From positions 1 to 34,372 of the forward strand of contig JAOACU010000001.1 of the NCBI GenBank assembly GCA_026417715.1: a stretch of 34,372 bases of DNA, given 5' to 3'. Under the pieces are notes generated by a model. That model saw only the letters and a program-made list of their open reading frames with translations. It was not told where the DNA came from and ran no database searches. The stretch's first letter is position 1, and each line of letters begins with the position of its first letter. A program made the position numbers and the translations under genes. Below are positions 8,989 to 26,147 of this stretch, piece by piece. Source of the stretch: Anaerolineae bacterium (GTDB taxonomy: Bacteria; Chloroflexota; Anaerolineae; UBA4142).

Positions 8989-10512
8989 GTGACCTCACAA
9001 CGTAATTGGCTATGGCAACCGAATCTCATCGTTTTTATTTCGAGCGCGTGCATTATGATTTTGGAACTGGTAGCGGGGCGAATGATTGCACCCCACGTCG
9101 GCTCGTCGTTGTACACGTGGACGAGTGTGATTGGTGTAGTACTCGCTGGTATCTCACTAGGCAATTATCTGGGCGGACGCTTGGCAGATCGCTGGGCATC
9201 GTTACGATTCTTGGGCGCAGTGTATCTGCTTGCCGCCATCACCTCATTCTTCATCCTGTGGGTGGATCGCATCGGACGTGTCACGCCGAATGACTGGCCC
9301 ATCGTCGCCGAAATTCTGGTGCTTACAACAGCGATGTTTTTTGTGCCCTGCACGATTCTGGGAATGATTTCGCCAATCGTCGCGAAACTCGCGGTGAGCG
9401 ATTTGGCAACGACGGGAAGCACCGTCGGGAAAATTTACGCCGCCGGCGCGCTGGGCAGTATTGTCGGTACGTTCGCGACTGGCTTTGTATTGATTTCGTG
9501 GTTCGGCACGTACACGATTGTTATCGGCGTCGCGCTCTTGCTTGGCGCGCTCGGCATCGTGTTCCTCTTGGGTGCGCGTTGGCAAGCGGCAGCACTCGCG
9601 CTGCTCGTCATCATTGGTGGCGCGACACTCGCGATCAATCAAGGTTGGAACAAAGGTCCGTGTGCACGTGAGACGAATTACTATTGCATCAAGGTTTACA
9701 ATGACAACGTGGGTGGCGAACCGATTCGATTGCTAGTGCTCGATCACCTTGTCCACAGTTACGTGTCGCTGACCGATCCGACCACGCTCATCTATGGTTA
9801 CGAAAAAATTTACGCCGAGATGGCGCAGTATCGCGCGCGCACCAAGTCGCCGCCCGATGTGTTGATGATTGGCGGCGGTGGCTATACGTTCGCGCGCTAT
9901 ATGAAAGCCGTTTATCCCGAAACGGCAATGCACGTCATCGAGATTGATCCTGGCGTCACCGAATTCGCGTACGCGGAACTTGCACTCAAACCCGAATGGA
10001 ACATTCTCACGTGGAACGAAGACGCGCGCACCTTTTTCGCGCGTCCTCCTTCGCGCAAATACGATTTGATTTTGGGCGATGCGTTCAATCACTATTCCGT
10101 GCCCTATCACCTCACGACCAAAGAATTCAACGAACGCGTGCGCGAGTGGTTGACGGACGATGGCTTGTACGTCGTCAACATCATTGACGGACCATACGGC
10201 GAATTTGTGCGCGCGTACTTTCACACGCTCCGTCAAACGTTCAAGCACGTGTATCTCGTGGTGGGCAATTACGCATGGCGCGAAGTCTCACGCAGTTTCT
10301 TTGTTTTGATTAGCACGGACAAGCCGATGGATTTAGCAACGCTGGCAAGTTGCGATGCGGGTGATGGCGACACGCTCACGATGCGTTTGCTGGCTGGCGA
10401 TGGCGAAATCAATCGCTTGTTGACCGAAGCACCGCTCATCACCTTGACGGATCAGTACGCGCCGGTGGATCAAATGCTGGCGTCAGTGTTCCAAGAGACC
10501 AAACCCAAGTGA
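8989..10512 (+). CDS. membrane-fused spermidine synthase-like (polyamine aminopropyltransferase family) protein
   Basis: The N-terminal ~210 aa form multiple hydrophobic helices. The C-terminal half has class-I methyltransferase/spermidine-synthase-like motifs (VLMIGGGGYTFARY, EIDPGV, ILGDAFN). GTG start, with AAGGAG 7 nt upstream. Confidence 0.78.
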   Translation: MTSQRNWLWQPNLIVFISSACIMILELVAGRMIAPHVGSSLYTWTSVIGVVLAGISLGNYLGGRLADRWASLRFLGAVYLLAAITSFFILWVDRIGRVTPNDWPIVAEILVLTTAMFFVPCTILGMISPIVAKLAVSDLATTGSTVGKIYAAGALGSIVGTFATGFVLISWFGTYTIVIGVALLLGALGIVFLLGARWQAAALALLVIIGGATLAINQGWNKGPCARETNYYCIKVYNDNVGGEPIRLLVLDHLVHSYVSLTDPTTLIYGYEKIYAEMAQYRARTKSPPDVLMIGGGGYTFARYMKAVYPETAMHVIEIDPGVTEFAYAELALKPEWNILTWNEDARTFFARPPSRKYDLILGDAFNHYSVPYHLTTKEFNERVREWLTDDGLYVVNIIDGPYGEFVRAYFHTLRQTFKHVYLVVGNYAWREVSRSFFVLISTDKPMDLATLASCDAGDGDTLTMRLLAGDGEINRLLTEAPLITLTDQYAPVDQMLASVFQETKPK

Positions 10513-10556
10513 TACGCAATACGTGATACGTGATAAGTGATACGTGATATGTGATG
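10509..10556. repeat. tandem heptamer array GTGATAC, about 7 units, filling the whole intergenic gap
   Basis: gtgatac gcaatac gtgatac gtgataa gtgatac gtgatat gtgatga. It contains the TGA stop of the upstream gene and the GTG/ATG start of metH. Confidence 0.9.
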
Positions 10557-13500
10557 AAACGTAAATACACCAATCGTCGCTATTTGGAAGCGTTGCAAGA
10601 ACGCGTGCTCATCTTCGATGGTGCGATGGGCACCAACCTGCAAAAAATGAATTTGACCGCCGAACATTTTGGCGGCGCGCAGTATGTCGGTTGCAACGAT
10701 TATCTGGTCATCACCTATCCCCAAGCCGTCGAGACGGTGCATCGTTCGTTTCTCGATGTGGGCGTGGATGTCATCGAGACGAACACGTTCCGCACAAATC
10801 GAATCACGATGCGCGAGTACGGCTTGCAGGAGCGTGTCGTCGAAATCAATCTGACGGCGGCACAACTCGCGCGTCGTTTGGCGGACGAATACACCACGAA
10901 AACACATCAACCGCGCTTTGTCGCTGGCGCCATCGGACCATCGGGTAAATTGCCTTCGGCGAACGAACCCGATCTTTCGGACATTACGTTCGACGAGTTG
11001 GTGGATGTGTTTCGTGAGCAAGCCGTCGGATTGATTCGCGGTGGGGTGGATGTCGTACTCATCGAAACGGCACAGGATATTCTCGAAGTGCGCGCGGCGA
11101 TTGCGGGGATTCATCAGGCGTTTGAAGAGACGGGAATCTTTTTGCCGATTCAAGCCCAAGTCACGCTCGATACCACAGGTCGGATGTTGCTGGGCACGGA
11201 CATTGAAGCCGCCTTGACGATTCTGGAGGGCTTGGACATTGATGTCATCGGCATCAATTGCTCCACAGGTCCCGAGCATATGCGCGAGCCGATTCGCCTC
11301 TTGGGCGAACAATCGCGCCTGCCGGTGTCGTGCATTCCGAACGCGGGTTTGCCCCTCAACGTGGATGGGCAAGCCGTGTATCCACTCGAACCCGAACCAT
11401 TCGCGAACGATTTGTACGAGTTCGTTGTCAAGCACAAGATTTCGGTGGTGGGAGGATGTTGTGGCACCACACCCGCGCATCTGCAACGCTTGATCGAGAA
11501 ACTCAGAGGTCATCCGCACCCCCCGCGTCCCACCGCTTGGCAACCCAAACTCGCCTCGGCGATGACCGCGCGCGCGATGCGTCAGGACCCGCCACCCACA
11601 CTGATTGGCGAACGTTGCAATGCACAAGGTTCGCGCAAATTCAAACAGTTACTCCTCAAAGAAGATTACGATGCGATTTTAGAGATGGCGCGCGAACAAG
11701 TCGCGAATGGCGCGCACGCGCTCGACGTTTCGACTGCGGTGACAGAACGCCCTGACGAAGCCGAACTGATGCGGCGGGTCGTCAAAAAACTAGCCACCAG
11801 CGTAGACGTGCCGTTGGTGATTGACACCACAGAACCCGACGTGCTCGAGATCGCACTCAAGACGGCGCCGGGACGTTGTCTCATCAATTCGACGCATCTG
11901 GAAGGCGGTCGCGCCAAAGCCGACAAGGTCTTTGCGCTCGCCAAGCAACACAATGCCGCTGTCATCTGCCTCACGATTGACGAACAAGGAATGGCAAAGA
12001 CGCGCGAACGCAAATTGCAAATTGCCGAGCGTTTGCACACCATCGCGGTACACGAGCACGGTTTGCGTCCCTCCGATCTCGTTTTCGACACGTTGACTTT
12101 TACGCTCGCCACAGGCGATCCCGAGTTTGTCAACTCAGCCATCGAAACGCTCGAAGGGATTCGTTTGATCAAGCAACATTTGCCCGGCGTGTTGACCTCG
12201 TTGGGAGTGAGCAATCTGTCGTTTGGTTTGGCGCCGCACGCGCGTCCTGTGCTCAACTCGGTGATGCTTTACCACGCCGTCCAAGCCGGGTTGGATATGG
12301 CGATTGTCAATCCGGCGCATGTGACGCCGTATGCCGATATTCCACCTCACGAACGCGAACTTGCCGAAGACCTGATTTTCAATCGGCGCGCTGACGCGCT
12401 GCAACGTTACATCGAGTACTTTGAAAAAGTGACGCCACAAAGCGTCGAAACGCACGTTGACCCCACCGCGCACCTTTCACCCCAAGAACGTTTGCATTGG
12501 AAAATCGTTCATCGTCACAAAGACGGTGTGGAAGCAGACATTGATGCGGCAATCGCGCAAACCATTCTCACTCAGCCGATTTCCAAACATCAAGCCGCCG
12601 TTCATCTCCTCAACACGGTTCTCCTGCCCGCGATGAAAGAAGTGGGTGACAAATTCGGTGCGGGTGAATTGATTCTGCCGTTTGTTTTGCAATCGGCAGA
12701 GGTGATGAAAAAAGCAGTGGCGCACCTTGAAACGTATCTGGAAAAGCAACAAGGTGTGAGCAAGGGCACGATTGTGTTGGCAACGGTGTACGGCGATGTG
12801 CACGACATTGGCAAAAATCTGGTCAAGACGATTCTGGTCAACAACGGCTACACCGTCATTGATTTGGGCAAGCAAGTGCCCGCCGAAACGATCATCCGTC
12901 AAGCGGTGGAAGCAAACGCTACGGCGATTGGTCTTTCGGCATTGCTGGTTTCCACTTCCAAGCAAATGCCGTTGATTGTGAACGAATTGCATCGTCGTCG
13001 TTTGCATTTTCCGGTGTTGATTGGGGGCGCCGCTATCAATCGTCGTTTTGGTCTGCGCATTTTGCGAACGGATACCAACGAGTACTATGCCCCAGGCGTG
13101 TTCTACTGCAAAGACGCGTTTGAGGGATTGGCAACGCTCGACCGTTTGCTCGATCCGCAACAACGCGAAGAACTACTCGACCATCTCTGGCGCGATGCCG
13201 ATGCCGAATTGAATCGCGCGCGTATCGAGACGCGGCGTGCAAGTACAGTGGCGCGCTCCGATGTTGTCCCTATGCCGTTTTCTCCACCGACACGTTGGGG
13301 TGTGCGCGTGGTGCGCGAAATGCCCCTCGAAATCGTCTTTCAGTATCTTTCGATCAAAGAACTGTATCGCCTGTCGTGGGGCGCGAAAAACGCGCACGGC
13401 GAAGAATGGGAAAAACTCCAACGCGCCTTCGACGAACGTTTGGAGCGAATGAAGCGCGAAGCCCTGCGCGAAGGATGGCTCAAGCCACAAGGAGTGTATG

Positions 13501-14072
13501 GCATTTTCCCGTGTCAGTCTGAGGGTGATGAATTGATTATTTACGATCCTGCTACCATCAACACGGCATCACCCGAAGAACTCACGCGCTTTTCTTTCCC
13601 GCGTCAGCCCGATTGGGAACGTCTGTGTCTTGCCGATTACTTTGCTTCCGTAGATTCGGGCAAGTTCGATGTGGTGGCGTTGCAAGTGGTGACGGTCGGA
13701 CATCAAGCCACCGAACGTTTTGATCGTTTGCAACTGGCAGGCGATTACACCGAAGCATACTTTACGCACGGCTTGGCGGTGCAAACCGCCGAAGCCACCG
13801 CCGAGTATTTGCATCGGCATATTCGTCGTGAACTTGGCATTCCTGAACAGCGAGGTAAACGATACTCGTGGGGCTATCCCGCCATTCCCGATTTAGCGGA
13901 TCATCGCAAGGTGTTTGATCTACTTCCTGCTGAACGCGAACTGGGAATGTCGCTCAGTCCCGCTTTTCAATTGATTCCCGAACAATCCACTGCCGCGATT
14001 ATCGTGCATCATCCCGACGCCAAGTACTACAGTGTAGGTAAATCGCGCGTGGAACAGTTGACCGAAGAGTGA
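10551..14072 (+). CDS. metH: cobalamin-dependent methionine synthase
   Basis: 1173 aa with all four modules: the Hcy-binding domain (GGCCGTTP), the pterin-binding domain, the B12-binding domain with the DxHxxG motif (GDVHDIGKN), and the C-terminal AdoMet activation domain. Confidence 0.95.
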   Translation: MMKRKYTNRRYLEALQERVLIFDGAMGTNLQKMNLTAEHFGGAQYVGCNDYLVITYPQAVETVHRSFLDVGVDVIETNTFRTNRITMREYGLQERVVEINLTAAQLARRLADEYTTKTHQPRFVAGAIGPSGKLPSANEPDLSDITFDELVDVFREQAVGLIRGGVDVVLIETAQDILEVRAAIAGIHQAFEETGIFLPIQAQVTLDTTGRMLLGTDIEAALTILEGLDIDVIGINCSTGPEHMREPIRLLGEQSRLPVSCIPNAGLPLNVDGQAVYPLEPEPFANDLYEFVVKHKISVVGGCCGTTPAHLQRLIEKLRGHPHPPRPTAWQPKLASAMTARAMRQDPPPTLIGERCNAQGSRKFKQLLLKEDYDAILEMAREQVANGAHALDVSTAVTERPDEAELMRRVVKKLATSVDVPLVIDTTEPDVLEIALKTAPGRCLINSTHLEGGRAKADKVFALAKQHNAAVICLTIDEQGMAKTRERKLQIAERLHTIAVHEHGLRPSDLVFDTLTFTLATGDPEFVNSAIETLEGIRLIKQHLPGVLTSLGVSNLSFGLAPHARPVLNSVMLYHAVQAGLDMAIVNPAHVTPYADIPPHERELAEDLIFNRRADALQRYIEYFEKVTPQSVETHVDPTAHLSPQERLHWKIVHRHKDGVEADIDAAIAQTILTQPISKHQAAVHLLNTVLLPAMKEVGDKFGAGELILPFVLQSAEVMKKAVAHLETYLEKQQGVSKGTIVLATVYGDVHDIGKNLVKTILVNNGYTVIDLGKQVPAETIIRQAVEANATAIGLSALLVSTSKQMPLIVNELHRRRLHFPVLIGGAAINRRFGLRILRTDTNEYYAPGVFYCKDAFEGLATLDRLLDPQQREELLDHLWRDADAELNRARIETRRASTVARSDVVPMPFSPPTRWGVRVVREMPLEIVFQYLSIKELYRLSWGAKNAHGEEWEKLQRAFDERLERMKREALREGWLKPQGVYGIFPCQSEGDELIIYDPATINTASPEELTRFSFPRQPDWERLCLADYFASVDSGKFDVVALQVVTVGHQATERFDRLQLAGDYTEAYFTHGLAVQTAEATAEYLHRHIRRELGIPEQRGKRYSWGYPAIPDLADHRKVFDLLPAERELGMSLSPAFQLIPEQSTAAIIVHHPDAKYYSVGKSRVEQLTEE

Positions 14073-15940
14073 TAGATATGACTAACGAATTTCTCACCCA
14101 ACTTGCTTCAACGCCCTTGCTTGCCGATGGAGCAATGGGCACAATGCTACACAGTCGCGGCATCGGTTTCGATGAATGCTTTGACGCGCTCAATCTCACC
14201 AATCCTGTATTGGTGGCAGATATTCATCGTGAGTATATTCACGCTGGAGCACAAATCATTCTCACCAACACGTTTGGTGCGAATCGGTACAAACTTGCCA
14301 AGCATGGTTTGGCGGATCGCGTTGCCGAGATAAATCGCGCGGGCGTAGAACTGGCGCGGCGCGTGGTCGCGGCTTCCTTTCGTCACGTGTGGATCGCGGG
14401 TGATGTGGGACCGCTGGGAATTCGCCTTGCGCCGTTTGGACGCGTTCAGCCCGAAGAAGCGCGACAAGCGTTTCGCGAACAAATCCAAGCCCTCGTCCAC
14501 GCCGGCGCCGACCTGATTGTGATTGAGACGATGACCGATCGCAACGAAGTGGTCGAAGCGATTCGCGTGGCGCGCGAAATCACAACCCTGCCGATTGTCG
14601 CGACGATGACGTTTACGCGCGATGACCGCACCTTGTTCGGCGACGATCCTGCAACAGTGGCGCGCGCGATGCACCAAGCGGGGGCAGATGTGATTGGAGC
14701 GAATTGTTCCGGTGGTCCATCGCAACTATTGCGCATCTTGCGTCAAATGCGCCAAGCCGTGCCCGACGCGCGCTTTTGGATCAAGCCGAACGCCGGCTGG
14801 CCCGAGCAAGTGGGCGACCGTGTGATGTACGCCGCCACGCCCGAATATTTTCGCGACTTTGTGAGTGAATTTCGTCGCGCCGGCGCCAACGTGATGGGTG
14901 GGTGTTGTGGCACAACGCCAGCGCACATCGCGGCGATGCACCAAGCCCTTCAACAAACTTTGCACATCACAGTTGAATCTGTCGAGTCTGCGCCGACGAC
15001 ACCGACCATCGAAACGGGCGCTGAGGCGGCACATCCTTCGCATCTGGCGCGTACACTCGCCGCCAAGAAATTTGCCATCGCGGTCGAACTCGATCCGCCG
15101 CGCAGTCCGGCAACTCAATCGCTGATTGCCGCCGCCGCGTTGCTCCAAGACGCGGGAGCCGATGTGATTGACGTTGCCGATACGCCGATGGCGCGAATGC
15201 GAATGTCGGCGTGGGCAGTCTGCGAAGTGATTCAACGCCAAGTCGGAATTGAAACCACGTTGCATTTTCCCACGCGTGGGCGTAACTTGTTGCGCGTGCA
15301 AGGTGATTTGCTTGCCGCACACGCCGTCGGCATTCGCAACGTGTTCGTGGTGATGGGCGATCCCACCTCCATCGGCGATTATCCCGAAGCCACCGATAAC
15401 TATGACCTTGTGCCTTCGGGCTTGATCAAACTGATCAAACAAGGTTTCAATGTGGGTGTAGATCACGCTGGCATCTCGATTGGACAACCGACGGCGTTCT
15501 TTGTCGGCGCGGCACTCAATCCCTGTTCACCCGAACCGGAAAACGAAATCAAGAACCTGATCCGCAAGTTGAACGCGGGTGCCGATTTCTTTTTGACCCA
15601 ACCAATTTTCGATCCGCAGGCATTGCGCGAATTTTTCGAGCGCTTTGCCGATAAAACCGGGCGTCCCTTGGACCGACCTGTGCTCGTGGGCATCCTACCA
15701 CTGGTCAGCATCAAACACGCCAACTTTTTGCACAACGAAGTGCCGGGGATTGTCATTCCCGAAGCGATACGTCAACGGATGGAACGCGCGGGGGAACAAG
15801 GTGTGCGCGAAGGTGTGCGCATCGCGCTCGAACTCGTCGAACAAATCAAACCTTGGGCAGCGGGGATTTACCTGATGCCCCAATTCAATCGTTACGACCT
15901 CGTGGCGGAAATCATCGAAGCCACGCGTCGGAGAGTGTGA
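14069..15940 (+). CDS. bifunctional homocysteine S-methyltransferase / 5,10-methylenetetrahydrofolate reductase (YitJ-like fusion)
   Basis: The N-terminal Hcy-binding domain has LADGAMGT, NTFGAN and GGCCGTTPAHI. The C-terminal MetF/MTHFR domain has the tail FFLTQPIFD and an NFLHNEVPGI-like region. GTG 14069 overlaps the metH stop. ATG 14078 is an alternative start. Confidence 0.88.
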   Translation: MIDMTNEFLTQLASTPLLADGAMGTMLHSRGIGFDECFDALNLTNPVLVADIHREYIHAGAQIILTNTFGANRYKLAKHGLADRVAEINRAGVELARRVVAASFRHVWIAGDVGPLGIRLAPFGRVQPEEARQAFREQIQALVHAGADLIVIETMTDRNEVVEAIRVAREITTLPIVATMTFTRDDRTLFGDDPATVARAMHQAGADVIGANCSGGPSQLLRILRQMRQAVPDARFWIKPNAGWPEQVGDRVMYAATPEYFRDFVSEFRRAGANVMGGCCGTTPAHIAAMHQALQQTLHITVESVESAPTTPTIETGAEAAHPSHLARTLAAKKFAIAVELDPPRSPATQSLIAAAALLQDAGADVIDVADTPMARMRMSAWAVCEVIQRQVGIETTLHFPTRGRNLLRVQGDLLAAHAVGIRNVFVVMGDPTSIGDYPEATDNYDLVPSGLIKLIKQGFNVGVDHAGISIGQPTAFFVGAALNPCSPEPENEIKNLIRKLNAGADFFLTQPIFDPQALREFFERFADKTGRPLDRPVLVGILPLVSIKHANFLHNEVPGIVIPEAIRQRMERAGEQGVREGVRIALELVEQIKPWAAGIYLMPQFNRYDLVAEIIEATRRRV

Positions 15941-18048: not shown

Positions 18049-18233
18049 CTCTATCCAAGTTTGAATCGTGGATGAGGTGGCGCGTTCGCGCGGCATCCCG
18101 ATTCGGTTGCCCAAAGGAGGTGTGTATGGCAGAAGCCAAAGATGGTTGTGTCAAACCTGCACGCGGGATCATTGCTCCCGCAATTCAAACAACGACTCCT
18201 GCGGGAGTCACAACAACTCAGGAGGTGAAAACG

Positions 18234-18824
18234 ATGCTCGCACGTGTTGGCAAACCCGCGCCCGATTTTGAAGCGAACGCGTTCATCGGCGAAGGGTTCA
18301 AACCCATCAAACTCTCGGATTACAAAGGCAAGTGGGTCGTCCTGTGCTTTTATCCCGGCGACTTTACCTTCGTCTGACCGACCGAACTCGCGGCGGTCGC
18401 CGCGCGATACGATGAATTCAAAGCGCTGGGTGTCGAAATTCTCGCGATGAGCACGGATAGTCGCTTTGTGCACAAGATTTGGCAAGAGCAAGAATTGTCC
18501 AAGATGGTGCAAGGCGGCGTGCCTTTCCCGATGTTGACCGATGCCGGCGGTAAGATTGGCACTGCGTACGGCGTGTACGATGAAGACGCAGGCGTGGACA
18601 TTCGCGGACGATTTATCATTGATCCCGATGGCGTCATTATGGCGATGGAAGTGCTCACGCCCGAAGTCGGTCGCAATCCCGATGAGTTGATTCGCCAAAT
18701 CAAAGCGTATCAACACGTCAAAAAGACGGGCGAAGTCACACCTTCTGGTTGGCAACCCGGTCAACCGACGTTGAAGCCAGGTCCCGCACTCGTGGGCAAA
18801 GTGTGGGAGGTTTGGAAGCCGTAG
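18234..18824 (+). CDS. peroxiredoxin (AhpC/Prx1 type) with an in-frame UGA at the peroxidatic position, a probable selenocysteine peroxiredoxin
   Basis: Two tracked ORFs (18045..18377 and 18447..18824) share one frame and are separated only by TGA 18375-18377, with no other stop between them. The joined protein reads ..[14 protein letters not shown][TGA]PTELAA.., STDS.F.H..W, RG.FIIDP.G, GRN.DE..R. ATG 18234 follows GGAGGTG at 18221-18227. Confidence 0.85.
18389..18404 (+). promoter_or_regulatory. candidate bacterial SECIS stem-loop
   Basis: CGCGGC-GGTC-GCCGCG is a perfect 6-bp stem that starts exactly 11 nt after the UGA. Its GGUC apical loop resembles the E. coli fdhF minimal SECIS as I recall it. 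Confidence 0.6.
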
Positions 18825-18825
18825 T

Positions 18826-18870
18826 TGGAGATTGGAGAATAGAGGTTAGAGAATAGAGATTGGAGATTGA
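18826..18870. repeat. tandem heptamer array GATTGGA/GAATAGA, about 6 units
   Basis: gattgga gaataga ggttaga gaataga gattgga gattgaa, immediately after the prx stop. Confidence 0.85.
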
Positions 18871-18906
18871 AGACCTGAAGGGTTTTGAATCCTTCGGGTC
18901 TTTTTG
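18871..18906 (+). terminator. rho-independent terminator of the peroxiredoxin gene
   Basis: agacctgaagg-gttttgaat-ccttcgggtct is an 11-bp stem with one G:U pair, followed by tttttgcatttt. Confidence 0.7.
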
Positions 18907-18956
18907 CATTTTCGCGCTAACGCGTGTAAATTTGATGACGAAAGGATGCAAGTGCA

Positions 18957-19892: not shown

Positions 19893-19992
19893 CCTTTCGC
19901 GCCCTTTCGCGCCCTTTCGCGTCCTTTCGCGTCCTTTCGCGCCCTTTCGCGTCCTTTCGCGTCCTTTCGTACTCTTTCGCGTTTCTTTCGCG
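19893..19992. repeat. 10-bp tandem repeat CCTTTCGCGY, 10 units (7 near-perfect, 3 degenerate)
   Basis: Direct reading gives cctttcgcgc x2, ..gcgt x2, ..gcgc, ..gcgt x2, then degenerate units. Partial inverted copies cgcgaaa / cgaaacgcgaaat follow at 19999-20027. Confidence 0.92.
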
Positions 19993-20044
19993 TCTGCCGC
20001 GCGAAAATCGTGACCGAAACGCGAAATTTCCAAAAGGCAAACGA

Positions 20045-23840: not shown

Positions 23841-23951
23841 GTATCACACCTCGTACGTAATTTGCTTGTGCGCGCAGGATTCGCTATAATTTTGACGAAA
23901 GACCAAAGACGAACGACGAAGGCATTCATCGTTCGTCCTAGGAGTGAAGGT

Positions 23952-26147
23952 ATGAAACGAATCGCAATCATATTGTTTGCCGTGATGCTGGGCTTGAGCA
24001 TTGGCTTGCCCGTCGCGCGGGTGGGTGCCGCCACTGCAACGCCCACGCGTGGTATCACTTGCAAAGCGTGCGATGAAGATTACGTGAAACCTGTGGTGAA
24101 CTTTTGGTTGTTCTACTCAGGTTACTGTCCCGATTCCATCAAATTGATGCGCGAAGTCTTGCCCGCAATTTTGTCCAAGTATCCGTCTGACCAAGTGACG
24201 GTGTATCGGTACGATTTGGACAAGGGACCTTCCGAGATGATGAGCGCGTTAGAGCGGTGGCATAACTTGCCCCCGGGCGGTCTGCCCGCCATTTTCATCG
24301 ATGAACACGCTCTGGTGGGACTTGAACCGATTCAGGAAAAATTGGAGAAACTGATTGATCATTACCTTGAGCGCGGCGGTGTGGCATTGCTCTACCCCAA
24401 TCGCGTTGCCACTCTCACTGCTACACCTACACCGACGCGCACGCCTACACCCGCGAAATCGCTAGCCGTCGTGCGCATCGTCTTTTTTTGGAGCCAGTAC
24501 TGCCCACATTGTCACTACGTCATCGAAAATGTTTTGCCGCCTCTTCAGAAAAAATACGGCGCGCAACTCGAAATTCTGATGTTCGAGTTGTCGCAACCTG
24601 AGAATGTGCAATTGTTCGAGAGCACGATGCACGCGCTACGCGTGCCACAGAGCGAATGGGGCGTGCCATTCATCATCGTCGGTAACCAAACGCTGGTCGG
24701 TTCAGTCGAAGTATCGCAGCGACTGCCGATACTCATCGAGCAGTATCTAGCGGTGGGTGGTGTGGGCTTGCCGCCCGTTCCCGAATTGGTCAAGCGCGTC
24801 GGCACGCCAATCCCAACTGCCACGCGCGCTGTCACGCCTACGCCTCCATCAACGCCAACGGTGCGCGTCGTCACCGAGACGCCGCGCGCGACGACACCTG
24901 TGTCCGTGATTGCCACGCCCGCGCCGACGCTCGTTGCGCGCGCGCCGAATCAGCCAATCGTGCGCGCGGTGATGTTTTGGATGCGTGGTTGTCCGCGTTG
25001 CGAAGAAATTATCGCGCGCGTCTTGCCACCGCTCCAGCAAAAGTACGGCGCGCAACTCGATGTGCAATTGATCGAAGTGGCAACGACGCAAGATGTGGAT
25101 CGGCTGTATCAGGTGGCGACGAATTTTGGCGTGCCCAAAGAGCAAACGGGTGTGCCGCTGTTGATCATCGGCACTCAAGCGTTGACCGCGCATCAGATTC
25201 CCAACGAACTGCCGCGCCTCATCGAAAAATACCTCGCGGCTGGCGGTGTGGACGCACCGAACTTGGACGCGCGCGTCAAAGAACGTCACTTGCTCGATGT
25301 GCCATTCGTTGGACAAATTGACCTTGATCAACATTCGCTTGCGTTCAGTACGCTTCTCATCGGCTTGCTGGACGGGTTCAATCCGTGTTCGCTGTGGGTG
25401 ATTTCGCTCCTGCTCGCGCTCGTCGTCAACACAGGATCGCGCGCCAAAACTCTGCTCGTCGGTTCGACGTTTCTGATTGTGGCGGCAGGTATCTACGCGG
25501 TCATCATCATCGGCTTGTTCAGCGCGTTCACGTTCATCGGCTATGCGTTGTGGATTCGCATTGCGGTCGCGCTGATTGCAGGCGCGATGGCGGCAATCAA
25601 CATCAAGGATTATTTCTGGTTCAAGCGCGGCGTGTCGCTGACGATTGCGGATGAACACAAGCCGAAGATTTATCGCGACATTCGTAGCATTCTTGCACCC
25701 GACAAGTCTGCGCTTGCGCTTGTTGGCGCGACGGGAGCGATGGCACTCGGCATCACGATTATCGAAATGCCGTGCACGGCGGGTTTGCCGATTTTGTGGA
25801 CCAAACTCATCGCGGCGAACAATGTCGGCGCGGTGATGTTCGCGTTTCTACTCGGCTTGTATCTGCTGATGTACGTCCTCGACGAGTTGTTGGTGTTCAT
25901 CTCGGCGGTCGTCACGCTACGCGCGACGCGCTTGGAAGAAAAACAAGGACGCATCTTGAAACTCATCGGTGGAATCGTGATGCTGGCGCTCGCGCTGGTG
26001 TTGCTCGTGGATCCAACGTTGATGGACAGTGTCGTCAATTCGATGATGGTGTTTGGCGTGGCATTTCTCGTTGCGCTCGCGATTTTGGTCGTGCATCGCA
26101 AAATTTTGCCACGCTGGGGAATTGTGCTTGGAACGGAGGAATTGTAA
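23952..26147 (+). CDS. secreted triple thioredoxin-fold domain protein fused to a DsbD/CcdA-like transmembrane thiol-disulfide transfer domain
   Basis: Signal peptide MKRIAIILFAVMLGLSIGLPVARVGA. Three paralogous ~100-aa units carry CPDS (degenerate), CPHC and CPRC motifs, separated by Pro/Thr linkers. The C-terminal 6-TM-like domain has LLDGFNPC and EMPCTAGLP motifs. ATG 23952 has AGGAG upstream. Confidence 0.8.
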   Translation: MKRIAIILFAVMLGLSIGLPVARVGAATATPTRGITCKACDEDYVKPVVNFWLFYSGYCPDSIKLMREVLPAILSKYPSDQVTVYRYDLDKGPSEMMSALERWHNLPPGGLPAIFIDEHALVGLEPIQEKLEKLIDHYLERGGVALLYPNRVATLTATPTPTRTPTPAKSLAVVRIVFFWSQYCPHCHYVIENVLPPLQKKYGAQLEILMFELSQPENVQLFESTMHALRVPQSEWGVPFIIVGNQTLVGSVEVSQRLPILIEQYLAVGGVGLPPVPELVKRVGTPIPTATRAVTPTPPSTPTVRVVTETPRATTPVSVIATPAPTLVARAPNQPIVRAVMFWMRGCPRCEEIIARVLPPLQQKYGAQLDVQLIEVATTQDVDRLYQVATNFGVPKEQTGVPLLIIGTQALTAHQIPNELPRLIEKYLAAGGVDAPNLDARVKERHLLDVPFVGQIDLDQHSLAFSTLLIGLLDGFNPCSLWVISLLLALVVNTGSRAKTLLVGSTFLIVAAGIYAVIIIGLFSAFTFIGYALWIRIAVALIAGAMAAINIKDYFWFKRGVSLTIADEHKPKIYRDIRSILAPDKSALALVGATGAMALGITIIEMPCTAGLPILWTKLIAANNVGAVMFAFLLGLYLLMYVLDELLVFISAVVTLRATRLEEKQGRILKLIGGIVMLALALVLLVDPTLMDSVVNSMMVFGVAFLVALAILVVHRKILPRWGIVLGTEEL

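Follow-up and report, generated by a model that had tools for sequence, protein, structure and literature searches.

An in-frame UGA in a peroxiredoxin gene of an Anaerolineae bacterium almost certainly encodes selenocysteine

The stretch of DNA analysed here, referred to as the window, is the 34,372-nucleotide contig JAOACU010000001.1 of a metagenome-assembled genome (MAG; GCA_026417715.1) from an Anaerolineae bacterium (Chloroflexota). It carries prxU, a peroxiredoxin (Prx) gene that a list of open reading frames (ORFs) breaks into two pieces. A first reading of the DNA, made from the letters and the ORF list without database searches (the sequence-only reading), had joined these pieces because they lie in one frame and are split only by a TGA, and had proposed that this TGA specifies selenocysteine (Sec). 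It was found that the frame is indeed open from the ATG at 18234 to the TAG stop, with the TGA as its sole interruption. An in-frame ATG at 18126 lengthens the ORF by 36 codons; relatives begin at the equivalent ATG, and prxU most likely starts there. The gene, its recoded codon and the associated features are listed in Table 1.

Table 1. Coordinates in the window of prxU and of the features assigned to it, in order of position.
Feature	Position	Strand	Details
Shine-Dalgarno sequence AAAGGAGG for the long-form start	18113..18120	+	AGGAGG-type sequence before the equivalent ATG in nearly all of 62 loci
prxU coding sequence, long form	18126..18824	+	232 codons; Sec at codon 84; stop TAG 18822-18824
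N-terminal arm motif with Cys8 (18147-18149)	18138..18173	+	Cys in 83/84 non-redundant loci
Internal Shine-Dalgarno AGGAGG (18220-18225) and ATG 18234-18236	18220..18236	+	8 nt between the two; probable second start
Cys74 (TGC), 10 residues before Sec	18345..18347	+	Invariant in 84/84 loci
UGA codon 84, predicted Sec at the peroxidatic position (PxxxTxxU)	18375..18377	+	TGA in 89/89 gene copies; Prx2 alignment
Spacer of 11 nt from UGA to stem	18378..18388	+	Length fixed in 83/83 distinct sequences; likewise 11 nt in E. coli fdhF
Bacterial Sec insertion sequence (bSECIS) hairpin CGCGGC-GGUC-GCCGCG	18389..18404	+	Arms 18389-18394/18399-18404, loop 18395-18398; encodes (L)AAVAA
Thr205 (ACA) at the canonical resolving-Cys position, GEVTPSGW	18738..18740	+	Aligned to Prx2 GEVCPAGW
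Intrinsic-terminator-like hairpin with T-rich tail TTGCATTTTC	18869..18913 (stem 18869-18903)	+	16 pairs, 3-nt loop

The identity of the product was established by protein-level searches and alignments, in which Cys was substituted for Sec. The NCBIfam model NF040737 (“peroxi_PrxU”) matched with 387.2 bits against a cutoff of 270, and residues 6-231 were aligned to model positions 2-230 of 233, a coverage that takes in the N-terminal extension of the protein. Homologues of 232-240 amino acids likewise match the long form end to end. The product also matched Pfam AhpC-TSA (1.6e-40) and 1-cysPrx_C, whereas it scored 193 bits with the AhpC equivalog model, below the cutoff of 272, and 21 bits with the Prx-SUH model (NF045827), whose cutoff is 298. 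Among solved structures, those of typical 2-Cys enzymes come closest; human Prx2, for example, was matched in the PDB over residues 39-219 with an E value of 9e-53. In that alignment the TGA stands opposite the peroxidatic Cys, exactly where the sequence-only reading had placed it in a protein of the Prx1/AhpC type. The motif PxxxTxxU is present as P77-G-D-F-T81-F-V-U84, and the active-site residues P77, T81 and R160 are invariant in the alignment of homologues. An AlphaFold2 model of a Cys homologue has a mean predicted local distance difference test score (pLDDT) of 88.7. The window protein is a member of the PrxU family.

The state of the catalytic codon was surveyed in one genome per GTDB species, from which the best 80 loci were kept; together with metagenome contigs and the window these amount to 89 gene copies. 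TGA was found at this codon in 89/89 copies, including every one of the best 80 named-genome loci. The carriers span at least 10 phyla, among them Chloroflexota (Anaerolineae and others), Desulfobacterota, Acidobacteriota, Actinomycetota, Planctomycetota (Planctomycetia) and Armatimonadota, and also occur in Ignavibacteria, Krumholzibacteriia, Zixibacteria and Latescibacteria. A cultured isolate, Desulfothermobacter acidiphilus, is one of them. A lone in-frame stop in a MAG contig would look just the same if it were a nonsense codon in a pseudogene that formerly encoded Cys, or a sequencing or assembly error, and one relative, a long-read MAG, does have an extra upstream stop. However, a decayed or misread gene would not be expected to recur as the same-codon TGA in 89 independent copies from many phyla and assemblies. 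The frame remains open for 148-156 codons past the TGA in all 89 copies, and no further lesions are present. When relatives were compared with the window, the ratio of nonsynonymous to synonymous differences per site (pN/pS) in the 100 codons after the TGA was 0.167, with pS of about 0.77 and thus near saturation. The ratio for the 40 codons before the TGA was 0.231, so that the downstream block is at least as constrained. The open frame and the low pN/pS show that the 3′ part of prxU is translated. In addition, the hairpin described below accompanies the TGA specifically and not Cys codons. The view of the sequence-only reading that the gene is free of other lesions and is no decaying pseudogene is borne out, and a pseudogene or an error, which the comparative data have effectively refuted, is vanishingly unlikely.

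Two observations on individual relatives may be added. In the long-read MAG (locus L025), the extra stop lies around 10170-10250, upstream of ‘MSDYKGK’, and removes the N-terminal part; it is either an assembly error or a real truncation. A Deltaproteobacteria MAG (L036) has two prxU copies about 5 kb apart (around 4905 and 10247), both with the TGA and the hairpin.

Near-full-length protein homologues with up to 87% identity were found in public collections. An alignment of the Cys/Sec distribution, which the sequence-only reading had recommended, gave a catalytic column with W in 64 and Cys in 45 of the 120 protein matches listed, to which all counts from the protein search refer. This corresponds to a pairing of Sec with Cys, as the DNA of several ‘W’ records was read and the catalytic codon was TGA in all those checked. 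The gene had been expected to be mishandled by standard gene callers as two fragments or a pseudogene. It is mishandled, but in another way, as metagenome callers read the TGA as a Trp codon. Gene calls in public metagenome collections (JGI, ENA, Logan) thus give Trp at the catalytic residue, and users of these records would see a ‘catalytically dead’ Trp. We infer that the callers chose a code-4 model (UGA = Trp).

The dozens of homologues in which public callers put Trp could also be taken at face value. The UGA would then be read as an ordinary amino acid without any Sec machinery, either under genetic code 4 or 25 (Trp or Gly) or by near-cognate read-through (Trp or Cys); the Sec machinery of the source genome is, moreover, not on this contig. 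Such a reading conflicts with the behaviour of TGA elsewhere in the window, where it is the commonest ordinary stop and ends 11 of the 23 Pfam-supported genes. One of these stops is corroborated by a public record, since the NCBI product of MetH (MCX7837842.1, 100% identical, 1172 amino acids) matches a 1173-amino-acid ORF ending at TGA. Because TGA is an ordinary stop on the contig, the code is not reassigned and recoding is limited to codon 84. When the window was searched for further ORF pairs with just one TGA between them, all that came up were adjacent genes in the same frame or non-coding frames. An enzyme with Trp or Gly in the peroxidatic position would be inactive, yet purifying selection acts on the whole active site, and a covarying hairpin at the spacing known from fdhF has no role in simple read-through. 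The ‘W’ in the records is most simply a product of the callers’ code-4 model. Decoding as an ordinary amino acid is therefore very unlikely, and the apparent stop inside the peroxiredoxin gene almost certainly encodes Sec.

The ORF list itself suggests another possibility: the locus might give rise to two proteins, of which one, an 83-residue N-terminal peptide, would end at the UGA and the other, an independent C-terminal fragment, would start from the ATG at 18447. These are exactly the pieces in the list, and competition by RF2 makes some truncated peptide an expected by-product of Sec decoding (PMC4513850). Nevertheless, the 23 codons from the TGA to ATG 18447, which neither product would include, lie within a 100-codon block in which the mean amino-acid identity with relatives is 81%, and helix alpha2 of the Prx fold is completed by them. 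Neither fragment would hold the full active site, and no protein record for either was found on exact look-up (versions with W or X at the codon were likewise absent). Two products in place of one are, on this evidence, extremely unlikely.

The element that would direct the recoding of the UGA was also anticipated by the sequence-only reading, which had noted 11 nt after the TGA, a perfect GC stem with a GGTC loop and a likeness to the Sec insertion sequence (SECIS) of E. coli fdhF. All three points proved correct. In the window hairpin, all 6 bp of the stem are formed around a loop of 4 nt (-10.8 kcal/mol). In E. coli, the 46-mer TGA-CACGGCCCATC-GGTTGCA-GGTC-TGCACC..., with its TGA, 11 nt and stem with a GGUC loop, was found 100% identical inside fdhF in 5,419/5,426 genomes. 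The published bSECIS model specifies a loop of 3-9 nt, a stem of 4-16 bp, a distance from UGA to loop of 16-37 nt and a minimum free energy (MFE) of at most -7.5 kcal/mol, with a G in the first two loop positions and flanking bases N1/N2 that are able to pair (PMC13188914). With its loop of 4 nt (GGUC), stem of 6 bp, UGA-to-loop distance of 17 nt and the energy given above, the window hairpin lies within every one of these limits.

Comparative evidence for the hairpin came from an alignment of 83 distinct sequences. A hairpin occurs at the same offset in all 83, with 5-6 of the 6 stem pairs formed and a loop of the type RGUY. The tetraloop is GGUC in 42 sequences and AGUU in 39, with two others. 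The loop G-U is invariant (83/83), though the Val codon also fixes G-U. More generally, the hairpin codes for L-[A/S/T]-A-V-A-x, and this peptide dictates several of the bases. Where the hairpin does vary, it is mostly at synonymous third positions of codons, and the varying bases change in concert. The outermost pair (columns 18-33) is GC in 68 sequences, AU in 3, UA in 3, GU in 2 and CG in 1, and the pair 21-30 is GC in 66, AU in 14 and GU in 3. Loop positions 1 and 4 (columns 24-27; 18395 and 18398 in the window), both synonymous third positions, are GC in 42 and AU in 39, with 2 exceptions. This almost perfect covariation is what the published bSECIS pattern describes for its N1/N2 pair, and it implies that only the G-U is truly unpaired. 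Over the alignment, 93.6% of paired cells were formed against 85.0 ± 0.7% in shuffles, and the covariation score was 0.329 against 0.170; none of 500 shuffles reached the observed value in either case.

The influence of the peptide was assessed with Cys genes as the decisive control. A metagenome scan for the pattern TGY followed by the peptide P-T-E-L-x-A-V-A yielded 21 distinct Cys genes. The mean number of stem pairs (of 6) was 5.56 in TGA genes and 4.0 in Cys genes (Mann-Whitney p = 9e-9), and the mean MFE was -10.2 versus -5.5 kcal/mol. The three purely synonymous pairs were formed in 93-100% of TGA genes as against 62% of Cys genes (Fisher p = 1e-3 to 9e-7). Since the hairpin is degraded in Cys genes that share the A-V-A core, it follows the TGA and not the peptide. 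Three Cys (TGC) genes keep a perfect GGCGGC-AGUU-GCCGCC hairpin (L106, 3086-3123; L107, 736-773; L112, 4410-4447), and L106 also has the GEVTPSGW motif of the clade. These three are probably recent conversions from Sec to Cys with a fossil SECIS.

Several observations weigh against a Sec-decoded prxU and have to be set beside this evidence. The window hairpin is not thermodynamically exceptional, with a z score of -2.45 for the 16-mer and of -0.7 to -0.8 for the hairpin together with the UGA and its flanks. Single-sequence folding slightly favours a competing structure in which UGA-proximal bases take part. RNAalifold by itself retains just the inner 3 pairs, and in 26/83 sequences a U-U mismatch stands in place of the second stem pair. 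The GCN-GCN-GUN-GCN-GCN periodicity also gives 88.8% pairing when the alignment is slid by -3, albeit with low covariation. Moreover, neither selA, selB nor selD was found on the 34-kb contig by a Pfam scan of all large ORFs, and ARAGORN detected no tRNA-Sec there or in the flanks of 60 related loci (L008-L067). Signature motifs of SelD, SelA and SelB were absent from 1.38 Mb of related-locus sequence, in a search whose regular expressions may be too strict. On the other side, Chloroflexi are among the phyla known to contain Sec users (PMC1794560, PMC5389517), and an 8/4-type tRNA-Sec is reported for them. As the thermodynamics of the window by itself are unremarkable, the case for the SECIS rests on the comparative data.

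The UGA-proximal fold was considered as the functional structure in its own right. It needs the bases of the GGUC loop to be paired, so that the 39/83 sequences with AGUU could not form it; its bases would also be inside the ribosome during decoding, and for these two reasons it was rejected. A search of the window with Rfam at gathering thresholds gave no match.

Taken together, the conserved TGA, the selection downstream of it, the covarying hairpin, its agreement with the bSECIS model and the membership in PrxU bear out the sequence-only proposal of a Sec-containing peroxiredoxin. Judged from these sequence comparisons, the window gene is very probably a genuinely Sec-decoded prxU that encodes a thioredoxin-fold peroxiredoxin of the Prx1/AhpC type.

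The decoding can be pictured after the paradigm of E. coli fdhF. With the UGA at 18375-18377 being decoded, the 11 downstream nucleotides would lie within the mRNA channel and the hairpin (18389-18404) would stand at the channel entrance. There it could be bound by the complex of SelB, GTP and Sec-tRNASec, which would outcompete RF2 and lead to insertion of Sec; both a dependence on SelB and a selenium-containing product are what we infer from this scheme. In E. coli, Sec insertion always competes with RF2 and has an efficiency of about 30-40% (PMC4513850). By analogy with the family, the selenolate of Sec84, in the PxxxTxxU pocket with the conserved Arg, would reduce H2O2 or organic hydroperoxides and be converted to a selenenic acid. 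A thiol would then resolve the latter, and a reductant of the thioredoxin type would bring the enzyme back to its reduced state.

Which thiol takes part in the resolving step is less obvious. The sequence-only reading had pointed out that the position of the usual resolving Cys reads GEVTPSGW, which is confirmed by the alignment with GEVCPAGW of Prx2. Thr occupies position 205 in nearly all PrxU family members, so the GEVCP resolving Cys by which typical 2-Cys enzymes are recognized is missing. The same reading had concluded that the enzyme would use a single Sec without a resolving thiol. This holds for the canonical C-terminal position; it does not hold for the protein as a whole, as Cys8 and Cys74 are conserved. 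These are the only Cys residues of the window protein, and both are invariant in the clade. Cys74 replaces the Phe found at this position in Prx2 and AhpC (LCFYP here, LFFYP there). With the C-terminal resolving Cys replaced by Thr, the resolving thiol may be the reductant itself, as in a 1-Cys-type cycle, or Cys8 or Cys74; either Cys may be considered a candidate on the basis of its conservation.

Cys8 belongs to an N-terminal arm with the consensus M-[AP]-E-x-K-D-G-C-V-x-P-x-x-G-P-[IL] (18126-18173); behind it comes a linker of variable sequence, about 20 residues long. Among the non-redundant loci, of which 84 were used for the counts on starts and Cys residues, Cys8 is encoded by TGT in 49 and by TGC in 34, and pN/pS over the 12-codon arm motif is 0.33 (pS 0.78). 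That the Cys is kept via both codons and that the motif is under such constraint indicate that the arm is translated. In the AlphaFold2 model of the Cys homologue, residues 11-20 have a pLDDT of about 75 with a short beta-bridge, and the linker (residues 20-34) falls below 50 and is disordered. No counterpart of the arm was found in the PDB. In planctomycete Cys forms, a signal peptide precedes the same arm motif.

The sequence-only reading had started the gene at the ATG at 18234, with a ribosome-binding site of its own. As the beginning of prxU this start gives way to the one at 18126, but the AGGAGG 8 nt upstream of it is real and forms part of a conserved internal start. An exact GGAGG is found just upstream of the Prx core in 77/84 loci, compared with 7% of background windows. 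An in-frame start codon follows 5-11 nt past the GGAGG, most often at 8 nt (ATG in 68 loci, GTG in 10 and TTG in 1). The residues encoded over the internal Shine-Dalgarno sequence vary (QEV, KEE, QEA, LEA, REV, VEG), whereas the nucleotides N-AG-GAG-G-NN are kept. A conserved Shine-Dalgarno sequence and start inside the coding sequence of a linker suggest an internal initiation site and hence two isoforms, so that the ATG at 18234 is a probable second start giving a short form without the arm. It is tempting to combine this with the candidate role of Cys8: the long form (ATG 18126) would carry the arm, whose Cys8 resolves Sec84 as a selenenylsulfide, and the short form (ATG 18234) would be arm-less. 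This combined scheme is possible, but we regard it as rather doubtful. No description of a dual start or of an N-terminal resolving arm was found for Sec-peroxiredoxins in a literature check that did not extend to the original PrxU paper.

Sec-peroxiredoxins as such are not new. The PrxU of Eubacterium (Peptoclostridium) acidaminophilum was reportedly purified by Söhling et al. in 2001. The window protein has the same Prx1/AhpC-type fold as this family with Sec (UGA) at the peroxidatic position, and nothing essential differs. Sec-Prx (PxxxTxxU) is among the experimentally verified prokaryotic selenoproteins (PMC13188914) and by 2006 already ranked with the commoner selenoprotein families of bacteria (PMC1794560). 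With typical 2-Cys enzymes (human Prx2 and Prx4, bacterial AhpC) the window protein has in common the fold, the active-site architecture and the Pro, Thr and Arg. It differs from them by Sec in place of the peroxidatic Cys, by Thr (GEVTP) in place of the C-terminal resolving Cys, by a C-terminus that ends soon past the GEVTP motif, and by the addition of an N-terminal arm with an invariant Cys as well as a Cys where the others have Phe. Other thioredoxin-fold redox selenoproteins of similar anaerobes are the Prx-like thiol:disulfide oxidoreductase (UxxC), Prx-SUH and AhpD-like proteins (PMC13188914, PMC1794560); these differ from PrxU in having UxxC or CxxU rather than TxxU, with Sec at another position.

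A similar comparison can be made for the hairpin. The SECIS of E. coli fdhF, a mini-hairpin bound by SelB, and the prxU element share a site in the coding sequence right after the UGA, a spacer of 11 nt, a short stem and a GGUC tetraloop with G-U in the middle. However, the upper stem of fdhF contains a bulged U, and its lower stem is long and reaches back to the UGA. The stem of the prxU element is a perfect 6 bp in the window and shows, instead of a bulge, a U-U mismatch at the second pair in the 26/83 relatives mentioned above. A lower stem is not conserved in prxU, and half of the family has AGUU rather than GGUC.

Downstream of prxU, the sequence-only reading had located a clean terminator at 18871-18906. 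A terminator-like hairpin of 16 pairs is present, with its stem at 18869-18903. Between the prxU stop and this hairpin lies a 7-nt tandem repeat, TTGGAGA, in about 7 copies (18825-18873), which can also be read as a 14-mer. The flanks of relatives (L008-L087) contain recurrent neighbours of prxU. A Fur/PerR-like regulator lies immediately upstream in 11 loci, rubrerythrin and a pyridine-nucleotide disulfide oxidoreductase occur in 8 each, Nitro_FeMo-Co-domain proteins in 9 and a metallo-beta-lactamase-fold protein in 10 (examples of neighbour positions are L078 9511-9969, L055 11222-11725 and L030 11636-12826). The regulator, rubrerythrin and the disulfide oxidoreductase fit a role in peroxide stress in an anaerobe. 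None of the recurrent neighbours adjoins prxU in the window, no synteny was seen between the window and the closest prxU loci, and clustering of neighbours revealed no conserved operon partner, any one neighbour being shared by at most 15/83 loci.

Three further features of the window are recorded here. At 10551-15940, the gene for a full-length MetH (1173 amino acids) overlaps by 4 nt with the gene that comes after it, which encodes a 623-amino-acid fusion protein composed of a second homocysteine S-methyltransferase domain and methylenetetrahydrofolate reductase. A 10-nt tandem repeat, CCTTTCGCGC, occurs in about 9 copies with a 30-nt super-period at 19893-19994, in the intergenic region between the DUF364 and DUF2085 genes. 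A 761-amino-acid protein (23862-26147), whose gene comes immediately after those of an ABC permease and an ATPase, shows only weak thioredoxin/DsbA-like matches around residues 205-276 and has no in-frame TGA.

Since the NCBI model NF040737 is curated and Sec-peroxiredoxins have been known since 2001, the window gene represents a correct rediscovery that adds one more member to the PrxU family and not a new family. It does not change the knowledge of selenoproteins, as Sec-peroxiredoxins are widespread in anaerobes. Its consequences concern annotation: the gene should be annotated as encoding one selenoprotein of 232 residues, not as two fragments or a pseudogene, and many public metagenome records of the PrxU family wrongly carry Trp at the catalytic residue. 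Secondary aspects may reward further work. In the family, nature has provided a very clean set of covariation data on a minimal SECIS of the fdhF kind within a fixed peptide. Other such aspects are the conserved internal start and the N-terminal arm with its invariant Cys, in a clade from which the canonical resolving Cys has been lost. Only the arm and the dual start may be new, and they are put forward as hypotheses. If the two forms exist as proposed, their ratio would tune the recycling of the selenoenzyme.

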